Positions 13,131 through 64,000 of a stretch of 64,000 nucleotides of DNA are shown one piece after another. How positions within the stretch are numbered: position 1 is the first letter of the stretch; each line of letters starts with the position of its first letter. Position numbers and translations under genes: made by a program. Under the pieces are notes generated by a model. The model had not been told where the DNA came from and did no database searches. It saw nothing but the letters and a program-made list of their open reading frames with translations. Location: NCBI GenBank assembly GCA_028704555.1, contig JAQWFD010000001.1, positions 69,401 through 133,400 of the forward strand. Reading direction: 5' to 3'. The DNA comes from Desulfobacterales bacterium (GTDB taxonomy: Bacteria > Desulfobacterota > Desulfobacteria > Desulfobacterales > JAQWFD01).

Positions 13131-13499
13131 TCAAAATAACAAACCGCCTTCACGTGCACCATCTGAAAGTGCTTTAACACGTCCGTGATATAAAAAACCA
13201 TTACGGTCAAAAACTACTTTGGTGATACCCTTTTCAACAGCTCGCTGGGCAACAAGTTTACCGATTGCAACAGCATCGACTATTTTCCCGCTTTGCGTAA
13301 GCTGGCCTTTAATTTCCGGCTCGGTCGTCGATGCAGCAACCAGTGTATTGCCCTTTACATCGTCTATTATCTGGGCATAGATATGCTTTGAGCTTCTAAA
13401 TACAGATAAACGAGGGCGTTGCTGTGTTCCAAGAAGTCTTTTTCGAATTCGTATTTTCCGTTTTAAACGCGCTTGCGCTTTTGGATTTGTCGATGCCAT
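13131..13499 (-). CDS. rplR: 50S ribosomal protein L18
   Basis: Trimmed from 13526 to ATG 13499 ([22 protein letters not shown]...[16 protein letters not shown]), 122 aa. Confidence 0.9.
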
Positions 13500-56575: not shown

Positions 56576-56600
56576 AAAAAAAGCCCGGCAATGCTGCCAG
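56576..56600 (-). terminator. putative terminator following the tRNA 3' fragment
   Basis: Minus strand CTGGCA-GCAT-TGCCGG (one G-U) followed by GCTTTTTTT, ~17 nt downstream of the CCA end at 56617. The pairing works only on the minus strand. Confidence 0.4.
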
Positions 56601-56616
56601 ACTTTTTATTTTCTTT

Positions 56617-56664
56617 TGGTGGTCCCAGCGGGGGTCGAACCCGCGTTACCGGCGTGAGAGGCCG
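56617..56664 (-). other. 3' 48 nt of a tRNA-Glu(CUC)-like gene (att-site copy / truncated tRNA)
   Basis: Minus strand CGGC-CTCTCAC-GCCGG-TAAC-GCGGG-TTCGACC-CCCGC-TGGGACC-A-CCA, i.e. anticodon arm, variable loop, T-arm, acceptor 3' strand and CCA. The sequence where the D-arm and 5' acceptor strand should be (56665-56695) is AT-rich and cannot pair with TGGGACC. Confidence 0.75.
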
Positions 56665-56768
56665 AAAAAATACTTTTACCTCTATTTATCTTTATAGCTG
56701 TAAAGCTATATAAATCAAGGACCTTAATCGTTTGTCGTTTATATTGGCTTATCAATATTTACCTTGAT

Positions 56769-56802
56769 TTGTGGGGTAGGTGTGGGGTATAGTGTGGGGT
56801 AG
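56769..56802 (+). repeat. three tandem GTGTGGGGTA-type repeats upstream of int
   Basis: tTGTGGGGTAG-GTGTGGGGTAT-AGTGTGGGGTAG, 26-59 nt upstream of the integrase ATG. The TGGGGTA core recurs (both orientations) in the block at 61019-61223. Confidence 0.75.
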
Positions 56803-56827
56803 AAAATCCAACCAAAGGAGGAACCCT

Positions 56828-57991
56828 ATGCCAGCAGCCAAACGATTTAAGACAAAATATCCTGGAGTCTTCTATACTATCGGCAAATCTGCCAGCGGAA
56901 AACCAGAACGGATTTACAATATTCGGTATCGAAAGCATGGAAAAATGATCGAGGAGAAGGCAGGACGGCAGCTTCAAGATGCGATGACACCCGCAGTGGC
57001 GGCGAGAATCCGAGCAAATAGAATTGAAGGCGACCTATCAAATCGTGAAAAACGAGAAGCTGAAGACGCAAAGAAAGCGGCTGAAGCTGGGAAATGGACC
57101 TTGGACAAATTGGCGGCTGAATATTTCAACGGTAGGCCGGACGGCAAATCTAAAGTTACCGACCTCAACAGGTTCGAAAAATATCTAAAAGCAAAATTCG
57201 GCAATCAAGAGCCTTCTGAAATCATCCCTTTAGAGGTTGACAGGCTTCGAATCAGGTTACTCAAAACCAAGTCCCCTCAAACCGTCAAGCACGTTCTGAA
57301 TTTACTGACCTGGATAGCCAACTTTGGATTCAAAAAAAACCTATGTGCCGGAATACCCTTTCATATCGAAAAACCAACAGTTGACAATCAAAAAACAGAA
57401 AATCTAACACAGGAGGAACTTTCAAAGCTTTTGCAAGTCCTTGATGAGCATGATGATATTCAAATCGCAAACCTTATGAAAATGGCTCTGTTTACCGGAA
57501 TGCGGCGCGGCGAGCTATTCAAACTAAAATGGAAGGATGTTGACCTTAACAGAGGCTTCATAAAAATCGTTGAACCCAAAGGCGGGAAAAGCCAAACTGT
57601 GCCGTTAAGTGAAGATGCTAAGCGGATTTTAGAAAAGCATCCCCGAACGGAAAGCGCGTTTGTGTTTCCGAACAAACACGGGGAACAGCGGGTTAGCGTC
57701 AGTCACTCGGTCAATAAGATCAAAAAAGCGGCCGGACTTCCTAAGGATTTCCGACCCCTTCACGGCTTGCGGCACACTTTCGCTTCTATTCTGGCGGGTT
57801 CTGGCGAAGTTGACTTGTATAAAATCCAGCGGTTACTCACACATAAAGATCCGCGAATGACACAAAGGTATGCACACCTCAGAGATGAGTCCCTCAAGCA
57901 AGCGTCTAATGTGGCCGGGGATATCATCAGCCAGGCAGCAGCTAAAAAGGATGTTGAGCAGGTCGTTAACATAGAGGAACATCGAAAATAA
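56828..57991 (+). CDS. int: tyrosine-type site-specific integrase
   Basis: The ORF track starts at GTG 56780. I prefer ATG 56828, with AAAGGAGG 6 nt upstream. Catalytic signature: R in FTGMRRGEL, HGLRHTFAS, and LLTHKDPRMTQRYAH (nucleophile Tyr). Confidence 0.92.
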   Translation: MPAAKRFKTKYPGVFYTIGKSASGKPERIYNIRYRKHGKMIEEKAGRQLQDAMTPAVAARIRANRIEGDLSNREKREAEDAKKAAEAGKWTLDKLAAEYFNGRPDGKSKVTDLNRFEKYLKAKFGNQEPSEIIPLEVDRLRIRLLKTKSPQTVKHVLNLLTWIANFGFKKNLCAGIPFHIEKPTVDNQKTENLTQEELSKLLQVLDEHDDIQIANLMKMALFTGMRRGELFKLKWKDVDLNRGFIKIVEPKGGKSQTVPLSEDAKRILEKHPRTESAFVFPNKHGEQRVSVSHSVNKIKKAAGLPKDFRPLHGLRHTFASILAGSGEVDLYKIQRLLTHKDPRMTQRYAHLRDESLKQASNVAGDIISQAAAKKDVEQVVNIEEHRK

Positions 57992-58100
57992 CACTTTTCA
58001 GGGGATAGGGTCCGGCTGATCACCGGAACCGACAAGACCGGATAACCTGGCCGGTTTTCCCCGGGGTCTAATACCAGGAGTGCCACAGGAGGCATAAAAA

Positions 58101-58853
58101 ATGGCTACACGTTCTATCTCAAATAATTACCCCCTTCTAAACATAGAGGCACTGAGTGCTTGCGCCGAAAGGTGGGCGCGATATTACCAGTTTATTCAAC
58201 GAATAACCATCCAGAGGACCTATTGCGTTTCCGAAGATATTCAATATGTAATAATTTTTGAAACACCGGAAATTGACGATAGCGACAGAGATTTGGCACC
58301 CTATTTTCATGATTTTCAAATGCAAGTGGCAGATCCCTTTGATGAATCATGCTTTCTCAGGGACTTGAAAACAGTTTACTCCGACGGCCAGGAGCATGCC
58401 GTTGCGGATGAGTGGTATTTTGACCGCATAGATATTGGAGAACAATGGAGTGCCGAGGTCGATGAGAATACCAAAATTATTCTTTATGAAAAATTAGATC
58501 CGCTTGATCTGCTGTTGAAAAGTATCCGTCCACAGGCTGATGAAATTTACCTCGGAATTAAAGAGCACGCGGGTATAGGCCTGAAGGCAGGAGGCGAACC
58601 GCAAATTAAGGAGAAGAGAAAGGAAGCCGCACTCGATATTTACAGAAAGGACAAGTCGCGGTTCCCGGATGTGCGGGAGAGCTTTCTATCAGAATTGGAC
58701 CTTTACGACTTTGGAGACAAGCCACATGAGGAGTTCATCGGCACGCTGCTAATGAAAATAGTGACGACAAGAGGCTTTTCGGAAGCAAAAAACAAACGCG
58801 ATCTTTTCAAGAGATCAAAGAAATGGAAGCCAGGTTCCGTGCCAAAAAAGTGA
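58101..58853 (+). CDS. hypothetical protein (no recognisable family)
   Basis: 250-aa ORF with a strong RBS (CAGGAGG, 7 nt spacer). Acidic N-terminal two-thirds and a Lys-rich C-terminal tail. I recognise no motif. Confidence 0.6.
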   Translation: MATRSISNNYPLLNIEALSACAERWARYYQFIQRITIQRTYCVSEDIQYVIIFETPEIDDSDRDLAPYFHDFQMQVADPFDESCFLRDLKTVYSDGQEHAVADEWYFDRIDIGEQWSAEVDENTKIILYEKLDPLDLLLKSIRPQADEIYLGIKEHAGIGLKAGGEPQIKEKRKEAALDIYRKDKSRFPDVRESFLSELDLYDFGDKPHEEFIGTLLMKIVTTRGFSEAKNKRDLFKRSKKWKPGSVPKK

Positions 58854-58938
58854 ACCTGTTAAATATTCATTAATTCAAGCATGTTATATATTTAGCAAGT
58901 TCACCTCGTGAGCTGTTAAAATTTCTTTACCTATGAGA

Positions 58939-58980
58939 CCCTGTAGTCATTCAGTTGATTATAGGGTTTTTTGTTTTTTT
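58939..58980 (+). terminator. rho-independent terminator after the int-orphan module
   Basis: CCCTGTA-(14 nt)-TATAGGG followed by TTTTTTGTTTTTTT. Confidence 0.55.
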
Positions 58981-59004
58981 ACCACTTAACACGGAGTTTT
59001 AACG

Positions 59005-59202
59005 ATGGATGAGAAATTTGCCAAGTATTTACACGAAAGGGAAGTGTCAGAAATCACAGGCCGGGCGCTTCCAACTCTGAGAAACGACAGACATAATCGG
59101 CGAGGCATTCCCTATTGCAAAATTGGGAGGTCTGTTCGCTACCTACATGACGACGTGATTGAATTCATGGAGAGCAGAAAAATCCAAACCGAAAGCCTGT
59201 AA
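59005..59202 (+). CDS. AlpA/excisionase-family helix-turn-helix DNA-binding protein
   Basis: 65-aa ORF. YLHEREVSEITGRALPTLRNDRHNRRGIPYCKIGRSVRYLHDDVIEFMESR matches the MerR-superfamily excisionase/AlpA pattern (HTH, then K/R-I/V-G-R-x-V/I-R-Y). Stop lies 2 nt before the primase ATG. Confidence 0.8.
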   Translation: MDEKFAKYLHEREVSEITGRALPTLRNDRHNRRGIPYCKIGRSVRYLHDDVIEFMESRKIQTESL

Positions 59203-59204
59203 AT

Positions 59205-61238
59205 ATGCAAGACACTATTGAAGCCTTACGGGCGGCGATGCTGGAAAACGGGATCAGCTGCCAAACTGAAATCATACCGGATGACGAACTCCACAGGTTC
59301 AAGCCAGAGGACCGAAATAATCCTGATGCCTGGTATGTGCTTCACTTGGACGGAATCCCGGCGGGAAGCTACGGGGATTGGAAAACCGGGGCGTCGTTTA
59401 CTTGGTGTGAAAAAAACCAAAGTGAAATGACACAGCCTGAACGGGCCGAGTACACCCGGCATATCGAAGCGCAGAAGCAACGGCGCGATGCCGAGCAAAA
59501 AAAGATCCACGGGAAAGCCCGACAGGAAGCCTTGAAGATATGGGAGGCAGCGTCACCGGCAACGCAGGAGCACCCCTATCTCAAACGAAAACAGGTTCAG
59601 CCTTATGGTGTCAAAGTCGATGAGCAAGGGCGGCTTGTGGTCCCTGCCAGGGATGCGGACGGCAAGATTCACACGATAGAACGGATCACGCCAGACGGAG
59701 AAAAGCGATTTTTGAAAAACGGCGCGAAGCAGGGCTTTTTCTTTGAGATCCCTGGCAGCACCGAAACCGTTTATATCTGCGAAGGATTCTCGACCAGCGC
59801 AAGCATCCACCAGGCAACAGGAAGGCATACCGTTTGTTCATTCGATTGTGGCAATCTGAAACCAGTGGCCGCGGCGATCCGTAAAAAATATCCTAATTCA
59901 AAAATTGTTATCGCGGCAGACAACGACCAAACGAAACCCGGTAATCCGGGATTGACAGCGGCACGAGCAGCAGCAAAGGCAACCGGGGCGGAAGTTGCCG
60001 TTCCTGAATTTAAGAAGGGAAAAGCCAAATTGAGTGACTTCAACGATCTTGCAACTGAGGAGGGGGTTGAGGAAGTCAAGAGACAGCTGGAAAAATCAGC
60101 AAAAGGACCGGATGTGCCAAAAGGTTACAACGCCTCAGAGTTGATGGATATTGTCTTTCCAGAAATCAAGTGGGCCATACCCGATATCTTACCGGAGGGG
60201 TTGAACATCCTGGGCGGCAAACCCAAACAAGGCAAATCTATTTTTGCACTGAACACAGGCATTGCCGTTTCATCCGGGGGCAAGGCATTGGGAAAAATCG
60301 ACGTTGAAATGGGATCGGTTATCTATCTTGCATTAGAGGATACCCCGCGACGCCTTCAGCAACGCTTACGGCAAATGTTACGGCACGGCGGAAAAGCATC
60401 AAATAAACTGCATTTGTTTACGGAGTGGCCGAGGGCGGATAAAGGCGGCCTTGAACTCCTGGAAACGGAAATCAAAAAACATGGAGACACAAGGCTTGTC
60501 ATTATTGACACCCTGGCAAAATTCAGACCGACTGACCGCGGAGCGAATAAAAGCTTGTATGATGTGGACTATCAGCATGTGGCGGAAATCAAGAGCCTTG
60601 CCGACAGATACACCGTCACCATTCTATTGATCCACCATTTAAGGAAAATGGAAGCCGATGACATAATGGATACCTTCAGCGGGAGCCTGGGACTTACAGG
60701 CGCGGCCGATGGCCTGCTCGCATTGGCAAGGAAAACCGGACAAGCGGATGCCGTTCTTCATATCAACGGGCGGGACGTTGAGGCGGCGGAATTTGCTTTA
60801 AAATTTGATCCCGAGTTCATGTCATGGCAGTTGCTGGGCGATGCCGGAGAAGTCCAGGACACGCAAAAACAACAAGCACTTTTCGACGCTTTGAAGGATG
60901 CCGAAGAAGCACTCACGCCAAAGGAACTATCTGAAATTACAGGATTAAATTACAAATATATCACCAAGACATTACCCAAGCTGTTAAAGCTCAACGCCAT
61001 AAGTAAGATAGAGAGAGGAAAATATATATATATGGTGGAGGGTTTAGGGGGGTTAGGGGGTAAAGGGGACATTGGGGGTTTAGGGGGTAAACGTCAATAC
61101 AGCTTCGATTCACCCCGCTTAACCCCCTGGGGGGTAAAAGGTAGGGGCATTTCCAAAGCCAGTAATGACAATGGTCTTCAGCTGAAAACCCCCATTATCC
61201 CCATTGTCCCCTATACCCCAAACGAGGTGACAATTTGA
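59205..61238 (+). CDS. bifunctional DNA primase (Toprim) / RepA-DnaB-like helicase ATPase, C-terminal wHTH-like region
   Basis: 677-aa ORF. Toprim Glu in VYICEGFSTSASI and DxD in VIAADND. Walker A GGKPKQGKS, Walker B LVIIDTLAKF, and the LLIHHLRK block typical of AAA_25/RepA-type proteins. The last ~70 codons run through a G-rich repeat block (peptide GLGGLGGKGDIGGLGGK). Confidence 0.88.
   Translation: MQDTIEALRAAMLENGISCQTEIIPDDELHRFKPEDRNNPDAWYVLHLDGIPAGSYGDWKTGASFTWCEKNQSEMTQPERAEYTRHIEAQKQRRDAEQKKIHGKARQEALKIWEAASPATQEHPYLKRKQVQPYGVKVDEQGRLVVPARDADGKIHTIERITPDGEKRFLKNGAKQGFFFEIPGSTETVYICEGFSTSASIHQATGRHTVCSFDCGNLKPVAAAIRKKYPNSKIVIAADNDQTKPGNPGLTAARAAAKATGAEVAVPEFKKGKAKLSDFNDLATEEGVEEVKRQLEKSAKGPDVPKGYNASELMDIVFPEIKWAIPDILPEGLNILGGKPKQGKSIFALNTGIAVSSGGKALGKIDVEMGSVIYLALEDTPRRLQQRLRQMLRHGGKASNKLHLFTEWPRADKGGLELLETEIKKHGDTRLVIIDTLAKFRPTDRGANKSLYDVDYQHVAEIKSLADRYTVTILLIHHLRKMEADDIMDTFSGSLGLTGAADGLLALARKTGQADAVLHINGRDVEAAEFALKFDPEFMSWQLLGDAGEVQDTQKQQALFDALKDAEEALTPKELSEITGLNYKYITKTLPKLLKLNAISKIERGKYIYMVEGLGGLGGKGDIGGLGGKRQYSFDSPRLTPWGVKGRGISKASNDNGLQLKTPIIPIVPYTPNEVTI
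61019..61223 (+). repeat. origin-like block: (AT)n tract plus G-run iterons and inverted C-run copies
   Basis: AAATATATATATATGG, then GGTTTAGGGGGG-TTAGGGGGTAAA-GGGGAC-ATTGGGGG-TTTAGGGGGTAAA. The exact 12-mer TTAGGGGGTAAA occurs at 61053 and 61080. Then the palindrome AACCCCCTGGGGGGT, GGTAGGGG, and ~40 nt later AAAACCCCCATTATCCCCATTGTCCCCTATACCCCAAA. Confidence 0.7.
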
Positions 61239-61612
61239 AAAATTCGGTCAATTTTTTATCCCGTATGGGGCTATACGTTTCAAATGGCGCAGGGGGCAAA
61301 GGGGACAAAATCAAAATATGGGGCCTGAACCGACTTTCAGCGGATCAGCGGGAAAATGTCGTTGAATATGCGAAGGAACACAAGACAGAGATCATAGAAA
61401 CCTTGAACAGGAAGAACCCCCGTTGTCTGGGCATTGTCTGCGACTACGCTCAATACAAAGAAATTGATGAAATGCCGTTTTGCCTATGGTGTAACCGGGT
61501 TGACAAGCTGGGGCTTAACCTGGCGGAATGCCCTGAAGGCTATTGGGAGAAGGATGAATTGGGATTCCCTAAAAACGCGTTAATGGAAGCCCATAGCCGA
61601 GGGCACCCATAG
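61235..61612 (+). CDS. hypothetical Cys-rich protein
   Basis: 125-aa ORF. TTG start with GAGGTG 5 nt upstream, overlapping the primase stop (ATTTGA). C-terminal half has C-x4-C...C-x2-C...C spacing. Confidence 0.5.
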   Translation: MKNSVNFLSRMGLYVSNGAGGKGDKIKIWGLNRLSADQRENVVEYAKEHKTEIIETLNRKNPRCLGIVCDYAQYKEIDEMPFCLWCNRVDKLGLNLAECPEGYWEKDELGFPKNALMEAHSRGHP

Positions 61613-61702
61613 AATGGCCAATAACCACCGAATCAGACAATTGACAAGCGGTCATACTGAAGGCCGAGTACAATTTATTTAATTTCAACAGGAGATACCG
61701 CA

Positions 61703-62467
61703 ATGAGTAACGTTATTCCATTCAACTACAATTCAAAAGAGGTAAGAGTAATCAAGGATGAATCGGGAAATCCATGGTGGGTTGCAAAGGATGTTTGTGA
61801 CGTCCTTGATATCAAAAACGCGACACAGGCAATAAGCATTCTTGACGATGATGAACGGTCTATGCAAAACATAGGTCGTCAAGGTGAGGCAAATATTATC
61901 AATGAATCAGGGCTTTATGCTTTAATCATCCGCAGCAACAAACCCCAATCAAAACCATTTCGCAAATGGGTAACATCTGAAGTTCTTACATCTATTCGCA
62001 AAACAGGAAGCTATAAAGCGCCAAATCAGAAACCAGCCACTCTCCTACCGATTGACCGGGAATTCCGGGCTGCCGTCAGAATGGCGAAAGCTGCTGGGCT
62101 AAAGGGCAATCAGGCAGTACTCTCAGCAAACCGTCTCACCAGAGAAATGACAGGTTCGGCACCGCTACAATTACTGGAGATCACCCATCTTGAATCAGCT
62201 ACCAAAGAAGCCCACCTGACCCCGTCCGACATCGGCAAACAGCTTGGCCTATCCGGACGAAAAGTTAACAAGACACTTGCTGCGAATGGGCTCCAGACAG
62301 CCTACAGGGATCATAAAGACAGGCTGAGATGGAAACCCACACCGAAGGGCGCGGCATATTCTGTCGCCAAGGACACAGGGAAAAAGCACAGCGACGGAAC
62401 GCCGGTTGTCCAACTGTTCTGGCTCGATTCGGTGCTTGACTCGCTGAAAATGTTGGCTGCTGCATAA
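61703..62467 (+). CDS. BRO-N domain protein (prophage antirepressor-like)
   Basis: 254-aa ORF with RBS AGGAGA. N-terminus VIPFNYNSKEVRVIKDESGNPWWVAKDVCDVLDIKN...ESGLYALIIRSNKPQSKPFRKWVTSEVLTSIRKTG is the classic BRO-N pattern. Confidence 0.85.
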   Translation: MSNVIPFNYNSKEVRVIKDESGNPWWVAKDVCDVLDIKNATQAISILDDDERSMQNIGRQGEANIINESGLYALIIRSNKPQSKPFRKWVTSEVLTSIRKTGSYKAPNQKPATLLPIDREFRAAVRMAKAAGLKGNQAVLSANRLTREMTGSAPLQLLEITHLESATKEAHLTPSDIGKQLGLSGRKVNKTLAANGLQTAYRDHKDRLRWKPTPKGAAYSVAKDTGKKHSDGTPVVQLFWLDSVLDSLKMLAAA

Positions 62468-62522
62468 TATCACACTTAACGAACCAGAACTTTACGCCAC
62501 AATCGAAAGGCGGTTACGACAG

Positions 62523-62888
62523 ATGAGCACAGATGATCTTCGAAAACGATACCGGCAATACCATAAAGAGCGTGACCGCCTTTGGAGAGAATACGAACGG
62601 GCTATGGATGCCTTCTGCGCTGAAATGCGAAAACTGCCTGTTCTTGTACGGCTGAAACACTACCACCAGAAACCAGCACCCCCACGTCTCCCCTTCCCCG
62701 ACGAACTGCGGGGCCTTACCTGAGGGGCTAAGACGAGGCGCGGGACGCCTTGTAAAAGAATAGATCTTTTCAGCAACGGACGATGTAAATTTCATGGTGG
62801 CATGAGTACAGGTCCGACATCGGCAGAGGGAAAGCGAAAGGCCGCCTTAAATGGGCAGAAACCGAAACGAAATAAGCGGAGTCCATGA
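62523..62888 (+). CDS. HGGxSTG-type zinc-knuckle protein interrupted by an in-frame TGA (candidate Sec codon, or pseudogene)
   Basis: The 66-aa ORF ends ...ELRGLT-TGA. The same frame continues GAKTRRGTPCKRIDLFSNGRCKFHGGMSTGPTSAEGKRKAALNGQKPKRNKRSP-TGA (62886-62888). The downstream part has no start codon of its own near its beginning. The TGA occupies the position of the first Cys in the CGAxTRxGxxC...NGRCxxHGGxSTGP pattern. Confidence 0.55.
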
Positions 62889-63049
62889 AGGGTTAACAAT
62901 AGTTAACATTTCAGGAGGCCGTACCCGAGGGTCGAGCGGTTATCTGAGGGCATGGTATAGCCGAATGATCTGAGCTACATCTGATGGTTTACGGACAATA
63001 AAAGGGTTACTTTTCTTTGATGATTTCGATTAAAAAAAAGGAGTTGATT

Positions 63050-63649
63050 ATGGGCGGCAGGGGTTCAGGCGCTTATATACGAATCAGCACAAAGCGTACA
63101 ACTGATGATTGTTTGAGTCTGGATATTCGTTGGCTTAAGCGAAACCATTTCCTCACACCGGGGCAGCAATACCCCCTTCAGTGGTCAGTCCGGGGAAGAC
63201 AAATCGGGGGAGTGACGCTTCAGGCCCATGAGAATCACGCCGTTTTGCTGTATCGCTATCGAAGGAACGGTGTGGGCGATTGGGAGGACGTTCAGCAGCG
63301 GATCAACTTCACATGGACACATTGCCACTATGGAGGGCAGCGGCGGTGGTTTATCTGCCCCTTCTGTTCGAGGCGCGTAGCGATCCTGTACGGTCCGGGA
63401 AGGCATTTTGCTTGCCGGGATTGTTATAATTTATCGTACGAATCGCAGAGGGAAACCCGCCCTTCCAGGATGTACCGAAAAGCCAGCAAGATTCGGGAGC
63501 GGCTGGGAGCGAGTCCTGCCCCCATAGACCCGATTTTTTCAAAACCAAAAGGGATGCACTATAAAACATTCAGATGGCTCAAGCTTCACGCAGAATTGCT
63601 GGAAGAACGTGCATTGCTGGATGGATACAGGATGCTGAAGCTTAGATAA
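63050..63649 (+). CDS. hypothetical Zn-ribbon protein
   Basis: The ORF track starts at TTG 63017. I prefer ATG 63050, with AAGGAG 7 nt upstream. Contains CPFCSRRVAILYGPGRHFACRDCYNLSYESQRE (C-x2-C...C-x2-C). From memory, the pattern recurs in mobile-element proteins of unknown function. Confidence 0.6.
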   Translation: MGGRGSGAYIRISTKRTTDDCLSLDIRWLKRNHFLTPGQQYPLQWSVRGRQIGGVTLQAHENHAVLLYRYRRNGVGDWEDVQQRINFTWTHCHYGGQRRWFICPFCSRRVAILYGPGRHFACRDCYNLSYESQRETRPSRMYRKASKIRERLGASPAPIDPIFSKPKGMHYKTFRWLKLHAELLEERALLDGYRMLKLR

Positions 63650-63797
63650 GGCATATGATAGGTTTAAAGCATTTGAAGAGCCTGGCGGCACCCTGATTCA
63701 ACAAACCGGAAACCGATCGCTCAAGATTTACCGACTATGTAAAAACGGCACTGCGAGCTTCCTCGAGGGATCTGCGTTGATGGTGTTTTTGTATCGA

Positions 63798-64000
63798 CTA
63801 AATTTCGTTTTCAGTCGATATTATTTTTAATGATAAAAATTCGTTTCCTCTTTTTGTATTTACGGTAAAATTCATAACTGATTTTGGCATACTATTAATA
63901 GAACCATCACGGATCATATACCCTTCACAAACAACCGTCGCTTCCCTTTCACTGATTTTGGTATTGCCTGAGCCTCTCACTTCCAACACTGCGTATTTGC
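63798..64000 (-). CDS. C-terminal part of an unknown gene running off the window edge
   Basis: The minus-strand frame is open from the window edge (…KYAVLEVRGSGNTKISEREATVV...STENEI-stop at 63798). AT-rich compared with its neighbours. No recognisable motif. Confidence 0.3.
   Translation of the reverse strand, partial: KYAVLEVRGSGNTKISEREATVVCEGYMIRDGSINSMPKSVMNFTVNTKRGNEFLSLKIISTENEI

Follow-up and report, generated by a model that had tools for sequence, protein, structure and literature searches.

A tRNA-Glu-inserted genomic island with a satellite-like backbone, probably integrative and self-replicating, in a Desulfobacterales bacterium

Structure and boundaries of the island

The 64,000-nt stretch of DNA analysed in this study (the window; Desulfobacterales bacterium, assembly GCA_028704555.1, contig JAQWFD010000001.1, positions 69,401-133,400 of the forward strand) ends within a genomic island that occupies a tRNA-Glu(CUC) gene. 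The left part of the island, beginning with a displaced tRNA fragment and a tyrosine integrase gene, lies in the window (Table 1). The remainder is found on contig JAQUGN010000008.1 (hereafter L001) of GCA_028684125.1, a Desulfobacterales metagenome-assembled genome that shows no mismatch to the window across the 12,298 nt compared. We interpret the island, with a probability of roughly 0.8, as a site-specific integrative element of 13,169 bp, with an integrase/AlpA-like/replicase backbone serving excision and its own replication, and with exchangeable cargo. All coordinates are positions in the window; those beyond 64000 are window-equivalents on L001.

At the left end, an earlier model-made reading of the raw letters (the first-pass annotation) had described a 48-nt tRNA-Glu-like 3' fragment (56617-56664), accompanied on its host side by a hairpin and a T-run. 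Both features are real. Read on the minus strand, the fragment contains the anticodon stem, CUC, the T arm, the acceptor stem and CCA, with no 5' half after it, and the host-side structure is a 13-pair hairpin. The possibility of a full-length tRNA at 56617-56695 was rejected, since none of the six tRNAs that ARAGORN placed in the window lies there, and the Rfam tRNA model aligned over its positions 7-64 only (21.9 bits versus a gathering score of 29).

In the extended contig, the 48-mer has exactly two occurrences, where chance would give none. Its second copy lies to the right of 64000, where the first-pass annotation had predicted both it and an intact tRNA, and is contained in a complete minus-strand tRNA-Glu(CUC) gene (L001 18084-18159, equivalent to 69786-69861). 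The perfect direct repeat in fact measures 50 nt (window copy 56616-56665), and the starts of the two copies are 13,169 bp apart. About 7.4 of the 13.2 kb are within the window, in agreement with the earlier estimate that at least 7.3 kb of a larger element was visible, and the cargo is cut at the window end. The locus thus has the structure that defines a tRNA-integrated island: one end is bounded by an intact tRNA, and the opposite end by a direct repeat of its 3' part. An integrase gene (PF00589) adjoins the attachment (att) site, 163 nt from attL.

Since the intact tRNA holds a perfect second copy of the repeat, the host 5' half at attR carries a 3' part supplied by the element. Just inside attR, a hairpin followed by a T-run, also supplied by the element, is present on the tRNA strand; the tRNA at this end has therefore been rebuilt from the host 5' half, the element-borne 3' part and the element terminator. 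At attL, in the window, the original host 3' part was displaced together with the host terminator. The tyrosine integrase has recombined an attP that bore the 3' 50 nt of the tRNA. Judged from its sequence, the island is complete and integrative, with a satellite-like backbone, and it is probably self-replicating and active.

Table 1. Features of the island and its host flank within the window
Feature	Position	Strand	Evidence and remarks
Intrinsic terminator from the host's original tRNA-Glu gene, now 3' of the displaced fragment	56578-56607	-	13-pair hairpin and T-run; terminator part alignable to the Rfam MicC model
attL core: displaced 3' part of tRNA-Glu(CUC), anticodon stem to CCA plus 1 nt	56616-56665	-	50-nt perfect repeat of the attR core
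Three tandem (G)TGTGGGGTA copies next to int	56769-56802	+	11-12 nt apart; putative arm-type Int sites
Tyrosine integrase (int), 387 aa	56828-57991	+	PF00589, 4.5e-35, 121 bits; phrog_1 integrase, 1.3e-59
Probable divergent int-alpA RNA (RF02996), directly after the int stop codon	57998-58079	+	23.6 bits; gathering score 35.8
ORF250, near-orphan, next to int	58101-58853	+	No family
Strong intrinsic terminator parting ORF250 from the AlpA-like gene	58935-58970	+	15-pair hairpin and T-run; also a sub-threshold 'trpB' terminator-like alignment
AlpA-like helix-turn-helix protein, 65 aa, MerR/excisionase-type HTH_17	59005-59202	+	PF12728, 29.6 bits; cutoff 27
Primase-helicase, 677 aa: Toprim_3 primase, AAA_25 RecA-type helicase, C-terminal winged-helix-turn-helix-like region	59205-61238	+	Pfam and PHROG matches
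Origin-like block	61020-61310		(AT)6 run; six G-rich direct iterons of 9-nt period, 61036-61091; inverted set, 61186-61219; one copy, 61291-61308
ORF125, small, Cys-rich, translationally coupled to the replicase	61235-61612	+	CxxxxC and CxxC
BRO-N/Ant-like anti-repressor homolog, 254 aa	61703-62467	+	PF02498, 87.7 bits; phrog_130 anti-repressor Ant, 1.4e-55
ORF66, small basic protein, single Cys	62523-62723	+	Annotated gene in all public copies
ORF210, MGGxGSG and Zn-ribbon (CxxC...CxxC), last backbone gene before the cargo	63017-63649	+	Probable start 63050, 199 aa
3' end of the first cargo gene, 429-aa AT-rich lipoprotein without family	63798-64000	-	Continues to window-equivalent 65087

Integrase region

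The integrase gene, the AlpA-like helix-turn-helix (HTH) gene, the primase-helicase gene with its repeat block and the BRO-N gene had all been recognised in the first-pass annotation, and each was confirmed, all of them on the plus strand. The int gene starts with the ATG at 56828, not with the GTG at 56780. A promoter-like sequence upstream of it (TTGATT/TATAGT) overlaps the three tandem (G)TGTGGGGTA copies. The motif GTGTGGGGTA has six matches in 20.8 kb, against 0.57 expected, and five of the six are located in the two arms of the element: three beside int and two about 63 nt inside attR. These five copies are the presumed arm-type sites of the integrase. The sixth, which has a single mismatch (GTTTGGGGTA), is a minus-strand copy at 61214-61223, inside the inverted iteron set of the origin-like block; a GGGGTA core is common to arm sites and iterons, which may be a coincidence or may reflect shared recognition.

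The spacer that follows int aligns to the int-alpA RNA family (RF02996), at the right position and with a score below the gathering score (Table 1). A search with 4,227 families on both strands of 8.2 kb gave this match an E-value of 0.19; for a single family and a single 110-nt spacer, our own arithmetic, not tool output, brings it to roughly 3e-7. An int-alpA RNA scoring 48.4 bits (gathering score 35.8) directly follows the integrase gene (1234-1303) of L088, a metagenome contig with a different island at the same tRNA. Each of the two RNAs folds as an outer stem around two hairpins, both share conserved CGACAAG and GTTTTCCC blocks, and at both loci the 3' end of the motif reaches into the ribosome-binding region of the next open reading frame (ORF). 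Thermodynamic support for the window RNA is nil (folding-energy z = +0.39). On the grounds of position and homology it is probably a divergent int-alpA homolog, not a certified member of the family.

The next gene, ORF250, had been called an orphan. It has no family, and a word-indexed search returned only the protein itself, but exhaustive HMMER searching among 1.84 billion representatives found 24 weak relatives, so that it is better described as a near-orphan; these relatives connect it to the post-int gene of L092, another of the loci compared here. Its AlphaFold2 (AF2) model (predicted local distance difference test score, pLDDT, 86.7) had no Foldseek match in the PDB at E<=0.001. Because a strong terminator parts ORF250 from alpA, int with ORF250 on one side and the genes from alpA through ORF210 on the other look like separate transcription units. 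This terminator, which splits a row of co-oriented genes, may be a regulatory checkpoint.

Regulator, replicase and putative origin

The AlpA-like protein is 61% identical to the product of the equivalent gene of L088, while in the L097 island the same slot is occupied by a PF05930 Phage_AlpA gene. It is the candidate regulator of both excision and the operon. The primase-helicase encoded next has weak matches at residues 521-609, and the homolog from L107, an IMG/VR contig, has HTH_23/24 matches at the same place, which suggests a C-terminal region resembling a winged HTH, encoded directly upstream of the origin-like block.

The replicase is modular. Its Toprim_3 half is 75% identical to a protein with DUF3987 in place of AAA_25, and its AAA_25 half is 50-65% identical to proteins with a primase part of the Prim-Pol, CHC2 zinc-finger or DnaB-N type. 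Distant relatives of the primase-helicase are found in phages and plasmids alike, and this protein therefore does not discriminate between a satellite and a plasmid.

The origin-like block occupies the 3' end of the primase-helicase gene, with only its last iteron copy past the stop codon. The pattern (GGGG N5)x3 has four matches in the 64 kb, all within 61047-61211, where 0.01 would be expected. The replicase genes of L088 and L097, which are of unrelated types, have their own iterons at the 3' end, again in a direct-plus-inverted arrangement (the L088 unit is TAGTGACAYAT). The iteron block of the element is a putative origin embedded in the 3' end of its own replicase gene. The alpha protein of phage P4 follows the same layout, combining an iteron origin with a C-terminal DNA-binding part.

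Genes downstream of the replicase

The first-pass annotation had placed three small Zn/Cys proteins in this region. ORF125 and ORF210 are indeed Cys-rich; the 66-aa protein has one Cys. The Cys-rich C-terminus of ORF125 is 47-48% identical to a gene or domain located after the primase in L092 and L102. Besides L001, five other public contigs carry the gene for the BRO protein.

ORF210 belongs to a large family (at least 659 homologs) in which the MGGxGSG start is invariant and two CxxC pairs are present. It matches no family in Pfam, PHROGs or NCBIfam, and its AF2 model (pLDDT 83) had no Foldseek match in the PDB or BFVD at E<=0.001. A reading of the protein as an HNH nuclease was rejected, since the alignment shows no His-His/Asn motif beside the CxxC pairs. 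In islands located at tRNA-Met, tRNA-Val and tmRNA genes, ORF210 homologs are likewise the last gene of an HTH-led backbone, a position that recurs in small non-mobilizable plasmids and in IMG/VR contigs. In the islands they are followed by a Type I restriction-modification (RM) system in L097-L099, by DarTG, UvrD and BrxL/PglZ genes in L095/L096, and by small ORFs and an integrase in L093.

ORF210 relatives are also present on 28 IMG/VR contigs. The closest relative in full architecture is L107, which encodes, in the order seen here, an integrase 59% identical to that of the window, an AlpA-like protein, a Toprim_3+AAA_25 replicase and an ORF210 homolog. Moreover, IMG/VR contigs of about 10 kb carry an integrase together with a protein containing the ORF210 C-terminal domain, and three of them (L111, L126 and L127) have terminal repeats of 99-123 nt. 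These three are 9.5-10.1 kb in size and low in GC. L126, which alone among these contigs was given a detailed annotation, encodes an integrase, a cI-like repressor, an excisionase-type HTH protein, pri, rep and a late-activator homolog, and ends in the ORF210 C-terminal-domain protein.

Cargo

The GC content of the cargo is about 0.30-0.39, with one short stretch of 0.46, compared with 0.43-0.53 in the backbone and about 0.50 in the host flank. The last 350 nt of the window had been called markedly AT-rich. The drop there is modest (40.5% GC in the last 400 nt, which are the 3' end of the convergent lipoprotein gene); it is past the window that the cargo becomes AT-rich. In L102, whose ORF210 is 89% identical, the DNA following this gene matches sequence situated about 2 kb further on in the element, and the 429-aa lipoprotein gene therefore looks like an insertion into the slot after ORF210.

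Beyond the window lies a gene for a 387-aa tetratricopeptide repeat (TPR) lipoprotein made of 102-nt tandem repeats. Its 102-nt (34-aa) units are 60-79% alike at the DNA level, and the gene is flanked by a 51-nt direct repeat (76% identical; L001 13858-13908 and 15619-15669). The flanking repeats and the repeat units together suggest a separately acquired or recently expanded cassette.

The cargo also contains toxin-antitoxin genes (L001 16118-17544, equivalent to 67820-69246). The toxin is of the YhaV type (PF11663, 131.7 bits versus a cutoff of 35). Its 316-aa upstream partner, possibly an antitoxin of a sensor type, resembles the PrlF antitoxin in the C-terminal 45 residues only, the toxin-binding tail (17 bits versus cutoffs of 32 and 125); where PrlF has its AbrB-type DNA-binding domain, this protein has a TPR region. 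The motif GTAACGCC upstream of this operon was not significant.

Six-frame reading of three long non-coding stretches of the cargo revealed no recognisable gene. A GA/GT dinucleotide microsatellite (L001 about 13420-13480) and a 78-aa ORF (L001 13629-13865) were also noticed; the latter, which matches no family and may be a gene fragment, by eye resembles part of a ParB/KorB-type HTH protein. As to the anti-phage cargo that had been suggested for the distal end, Type I RM, DarTG and BREX components are carried by relatives of the element. PADLOC-DB v2, applied to the unassigned backbone proteins and the cargo, revealed no catalogued system here and gave only weak, generic matches (TPR, winged HTH, BRO C-terminal); NCBIfam returned no specific match either.

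Related islands at the same and other sites

A comparison with relatives yielded no empty site but did reveal a different island at the same tRNA. In L088 (Ga0265294_10013574), an identical tRNA, with a host flank 96% identical to that of the window, is occupied by an island of at least 8.5 kb, whose integrase is 53% identical to the window integrase, whose replicase is of the P4/D5 type and whose cargo includes a lipoprotein gene. L088 has arm repeats of its own (GGTTGGAAAT, twice), situated at the same distance from the core as those of the window. The presence of a different island at the same tRNA in a related strain indicates that the site serves a family of integrases and turns over. An island of the same design (L089) resides in a tRNA-His gene, where the copies of its 53-nt att repeat are separated by 8,440 bp and a 25-nt repeat is shared by the two arms.

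The exact 76-nt tRNA had no match in the GTDB representative genomes. Fumarase-anchored synteny was followed in 80 genomes; the best fumarase was 79% identical (Desulfosarcina widdelii), and synteny was lost in the GTDB relatives. None of the 10 closest Desulfobacterales-type fumarase loci checked has a tRNA nearby, and so an empty site is not readable there.

Activity, transfer and alternative interpretations

In the working that we propose, the AlpA-like protein would drive excision as well as the operon extending from alpA to ORF210. After excision, the circle would be replicated by its own primase-helicase, whose C-terminal winged HTH would bind the iteron origin, as P4 alpha does. The BRO-N/Ant protein would act on a repressor of phage or host origin, the YhaV toxin would stabilise the element together with its long antitoxin, and the AT-rich distal third would constitute the exchangeable cargo. 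Transfer from cell to cell in the particles of a helper phage, i.e. the life style of a minimalist satellite, seems to us the most likely route, although we put it at slightly under even odds.

Several observations weigh against the interpretation of the island as a whole. Position and homology are the sole grounds for the roles assigned to the arm sites, the origin, AlpA and Ant. No empty site (attB) was found, and all six public contigs with the same flanking gene (an identical fumarase) carry the island. The attP junction had no match in IMG/VR and no excised circle was found; int and primase, used as single-protein queries, likewise had no close relative in IMG/VR. With regard to the satellite step in particular, the ORFs of the element include no homolog of terS, capsid genes, Sid/Psu/Delta or Ppi in Pfam or PHROG. 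Furthermore, ORF210 homologs are absent from 50,697 phage genomes and present in 35 plasmids (31 of the 35 rated non-mobilizable), including plasmids of 7-18 kb, a distribution that fits the life styles of a plasmid and of a satellite alike.

The missing empty site, together with the long stretches without coding sequence, the microsatellite and the putative gene fragment seen in the cargo, could point to an immobilised remnant, that is, a once-mobile island fixed in its lineage and now decaying. We find this improbable. The 50-nt repeats are perfect, the backbone ORFs are all intact and translationally coupled, and the arm sites are preserved on both sides; moreover, the site itself turns over, as the different island in the related strain demonstrates.

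The plasmid matches of ORF210 bear on another explanation, according to which the island is an integrative plasmid-like replicon, which would excise, multiply as a small episome and spread by mobilisation, transformation, vesicles or generalised transduction, with no dedicated helper phage. We regard it as a possible explanation that falls well short of even odds. Most of the 35 plasmids are small, and one of them in particular, the 10.5-kb pDCAR2 of Solidesulfovibrio, carries an HTH gene, a gene for a large protein, a further gene X and an ORF210 homolog in this order, with no tyrosine integrase. The lack of any detected packaging or capsid-interference gene agrees with such a life style, as do the relatives of the primase domain in conjugative plasmids. 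However, no relaxase, oriT protein or partition gene was detected in the element either, and the BRO-N/Ant protein is a phage-type regulator. ORF210-like genes also occur in circular contigs of about 10 kb that resemble phage-inducible chromosomal islands (PICIs), with int, a cI-like repressor, pri/rep and a late-activator homolog, and L107, the closest relative in full architecture, is filed in IMG/VR.

An integrase, an Ant-like gene and a phage-type primase could also be what is left of a prophage stripped of its structural genes. This candidate was rejected as extremely improbable, since the 13.2 kb contain no structural, lysis or terminase gene, nor a fragment of one; in addition, several tRNAs repeatedly harbour islands of 7.7-13 kb that are built on the same compact architecture.

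Returning to the interpretation of the island as a minimalist satellite, a broader proposal can be formulated. The gene order would define an undescribed but widespread family of minimalist satellites or satellite-plasmid hybrids, extending from Desulfobacterota to Firmicutes; ORF210, as a Zn-ribbon of new fold, would serve as the family's signature factor for hijacking, packaging or mobilisation; the position 3' of this gene would be a hotspot for cargo and defence genes, and the int-alpA RNA would take part in the switch. Taken as a whole, this proposal is unlikely. One recurring architecture does link the ORF210 Zn-ribbon family, the variable post-int gene and the int-alpA RNA, and genes for restriction-modification, DarTG and BREX accompany it in relatives. 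Should such elements turn out to be phage-borne, the 'Type C' grey zone of satellite catalogues, discussed below, would become a usable family.

The island itself is an ordinary kind of element, and the part worth following is the ORF210-terminated architecture, with its cargo slot holding defence genes in relatives. The study adds a complete, cleanly bounded island from an anaerobic sulfate-reducer lineage, in which, to our knowledge, no satellites have been described. It is also a case in which a tRNA-targeting island, and the position of its far end, were correctly called by a reader of raw sequence.

Comparison with known systems

We know of no P2-like helper for a Desulfobacterales host. 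The trio of integrase, AlpA-like HTH regulator and primase-helicase is common to P4-like satellites and PICIs (PMC10085698), and the assignment of the backbone to this type in the first-pass annotation is supported both by the domains and by the published definition. Among the five SatelliteFinder components of a PICI, three are present (int, a regulator of the alpA, stl or merR type, and pri-rep), and the packaging and capsid-morphogenesis components (terS, ppi, cpm) had no match in the element in either Pfam or PHROGs. A set consisting of int, regulator and pri-rep alone corresponds to the 'Type C' PICI, which was set aside as ambiguous because it may comprise defective elements, other mobile elements or new families (PMC10085698). 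By its gene content the backbone equals only this type, and 'satellite-like backbone' is the limit to which the evidence extends. The genes of the element are all co-oriented, with no divergent repressor, unlike those of a PICI; the layout of L126, on the other hand, is that of a classic Gram-positive PICI.

In the P4-like satellites, the int and alpA genes have counterparts in the PF00589 integrase and in the HTH protein, which matches HTH_17 rather than PF05930. P4-like satellites further resemble the element in their size (about 10-13 kb), in the tyrosine integrase acting at a tRNA 3' end, in the AlpA-type regulator and in the cargo hotspot that adjoins attP/int when the DNA is circular (PMC10085698, PMC8628076).

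The P4 alpha protein offers a parallel as well, being one large primase-helicase whose C-terminal DNA-binding part acts on iterons, and P4 epsilon and BRO-N/Ant are each anti-repressor-type genes. P4 differs in its psu-delta-sid operon, matched by no ORF of the element in Pfam or PHROG, in the Arm-DNA-bind_3 domain, which is absent from the integrase described here, and in the D5/SF3 helicase of alpha, in contrast to the RecA-type AAA_25 of the element; the P4/D5 type is found in the L088 island.

Integrative conjugative and integrative mobilizable elements (ICEs and IMEs) are poorly matched, as no relaxase, type IV secretion or coupling protein was found among the proteins of the element; the sole relaxase-like match was TraI on the Toprim region (20 bits versus a cutoff of 930). 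Phage-inducible chromosomal minimalist islands (PICMI; PMC10803314) and marine VEIMEs (integrative mobile elements packaged in virions; PMC9618062) are minimalist satellites without capsid genes, in which many genes have no homologs. The existence of such satellites means that missing hijacking genes do not exclude a satellite. PICMI and VEIMEs were shown to reside in virions or to be phage-induced; the likeness of the present element to them is one of shared domains.

The nearest counterparts are the relatives described in this study (L107, L089/L090, L097-L099, L095/L096, L093 and L088). They share with the element the order int, variable ORF, small HTH gene, large replicase, small ORFs, ORF210 homolog and cargo. 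Like the element, they target tRNA or tmRNA genes, are bounded by att repeats of about 50 nt and have arm repeats. The same islands differ by the shuffling of their modules, with four replicase types, integrases that are 23-59% identical, and cargo ranging from Type I RM systems and DarTG/BREX parts to lipoproteins.

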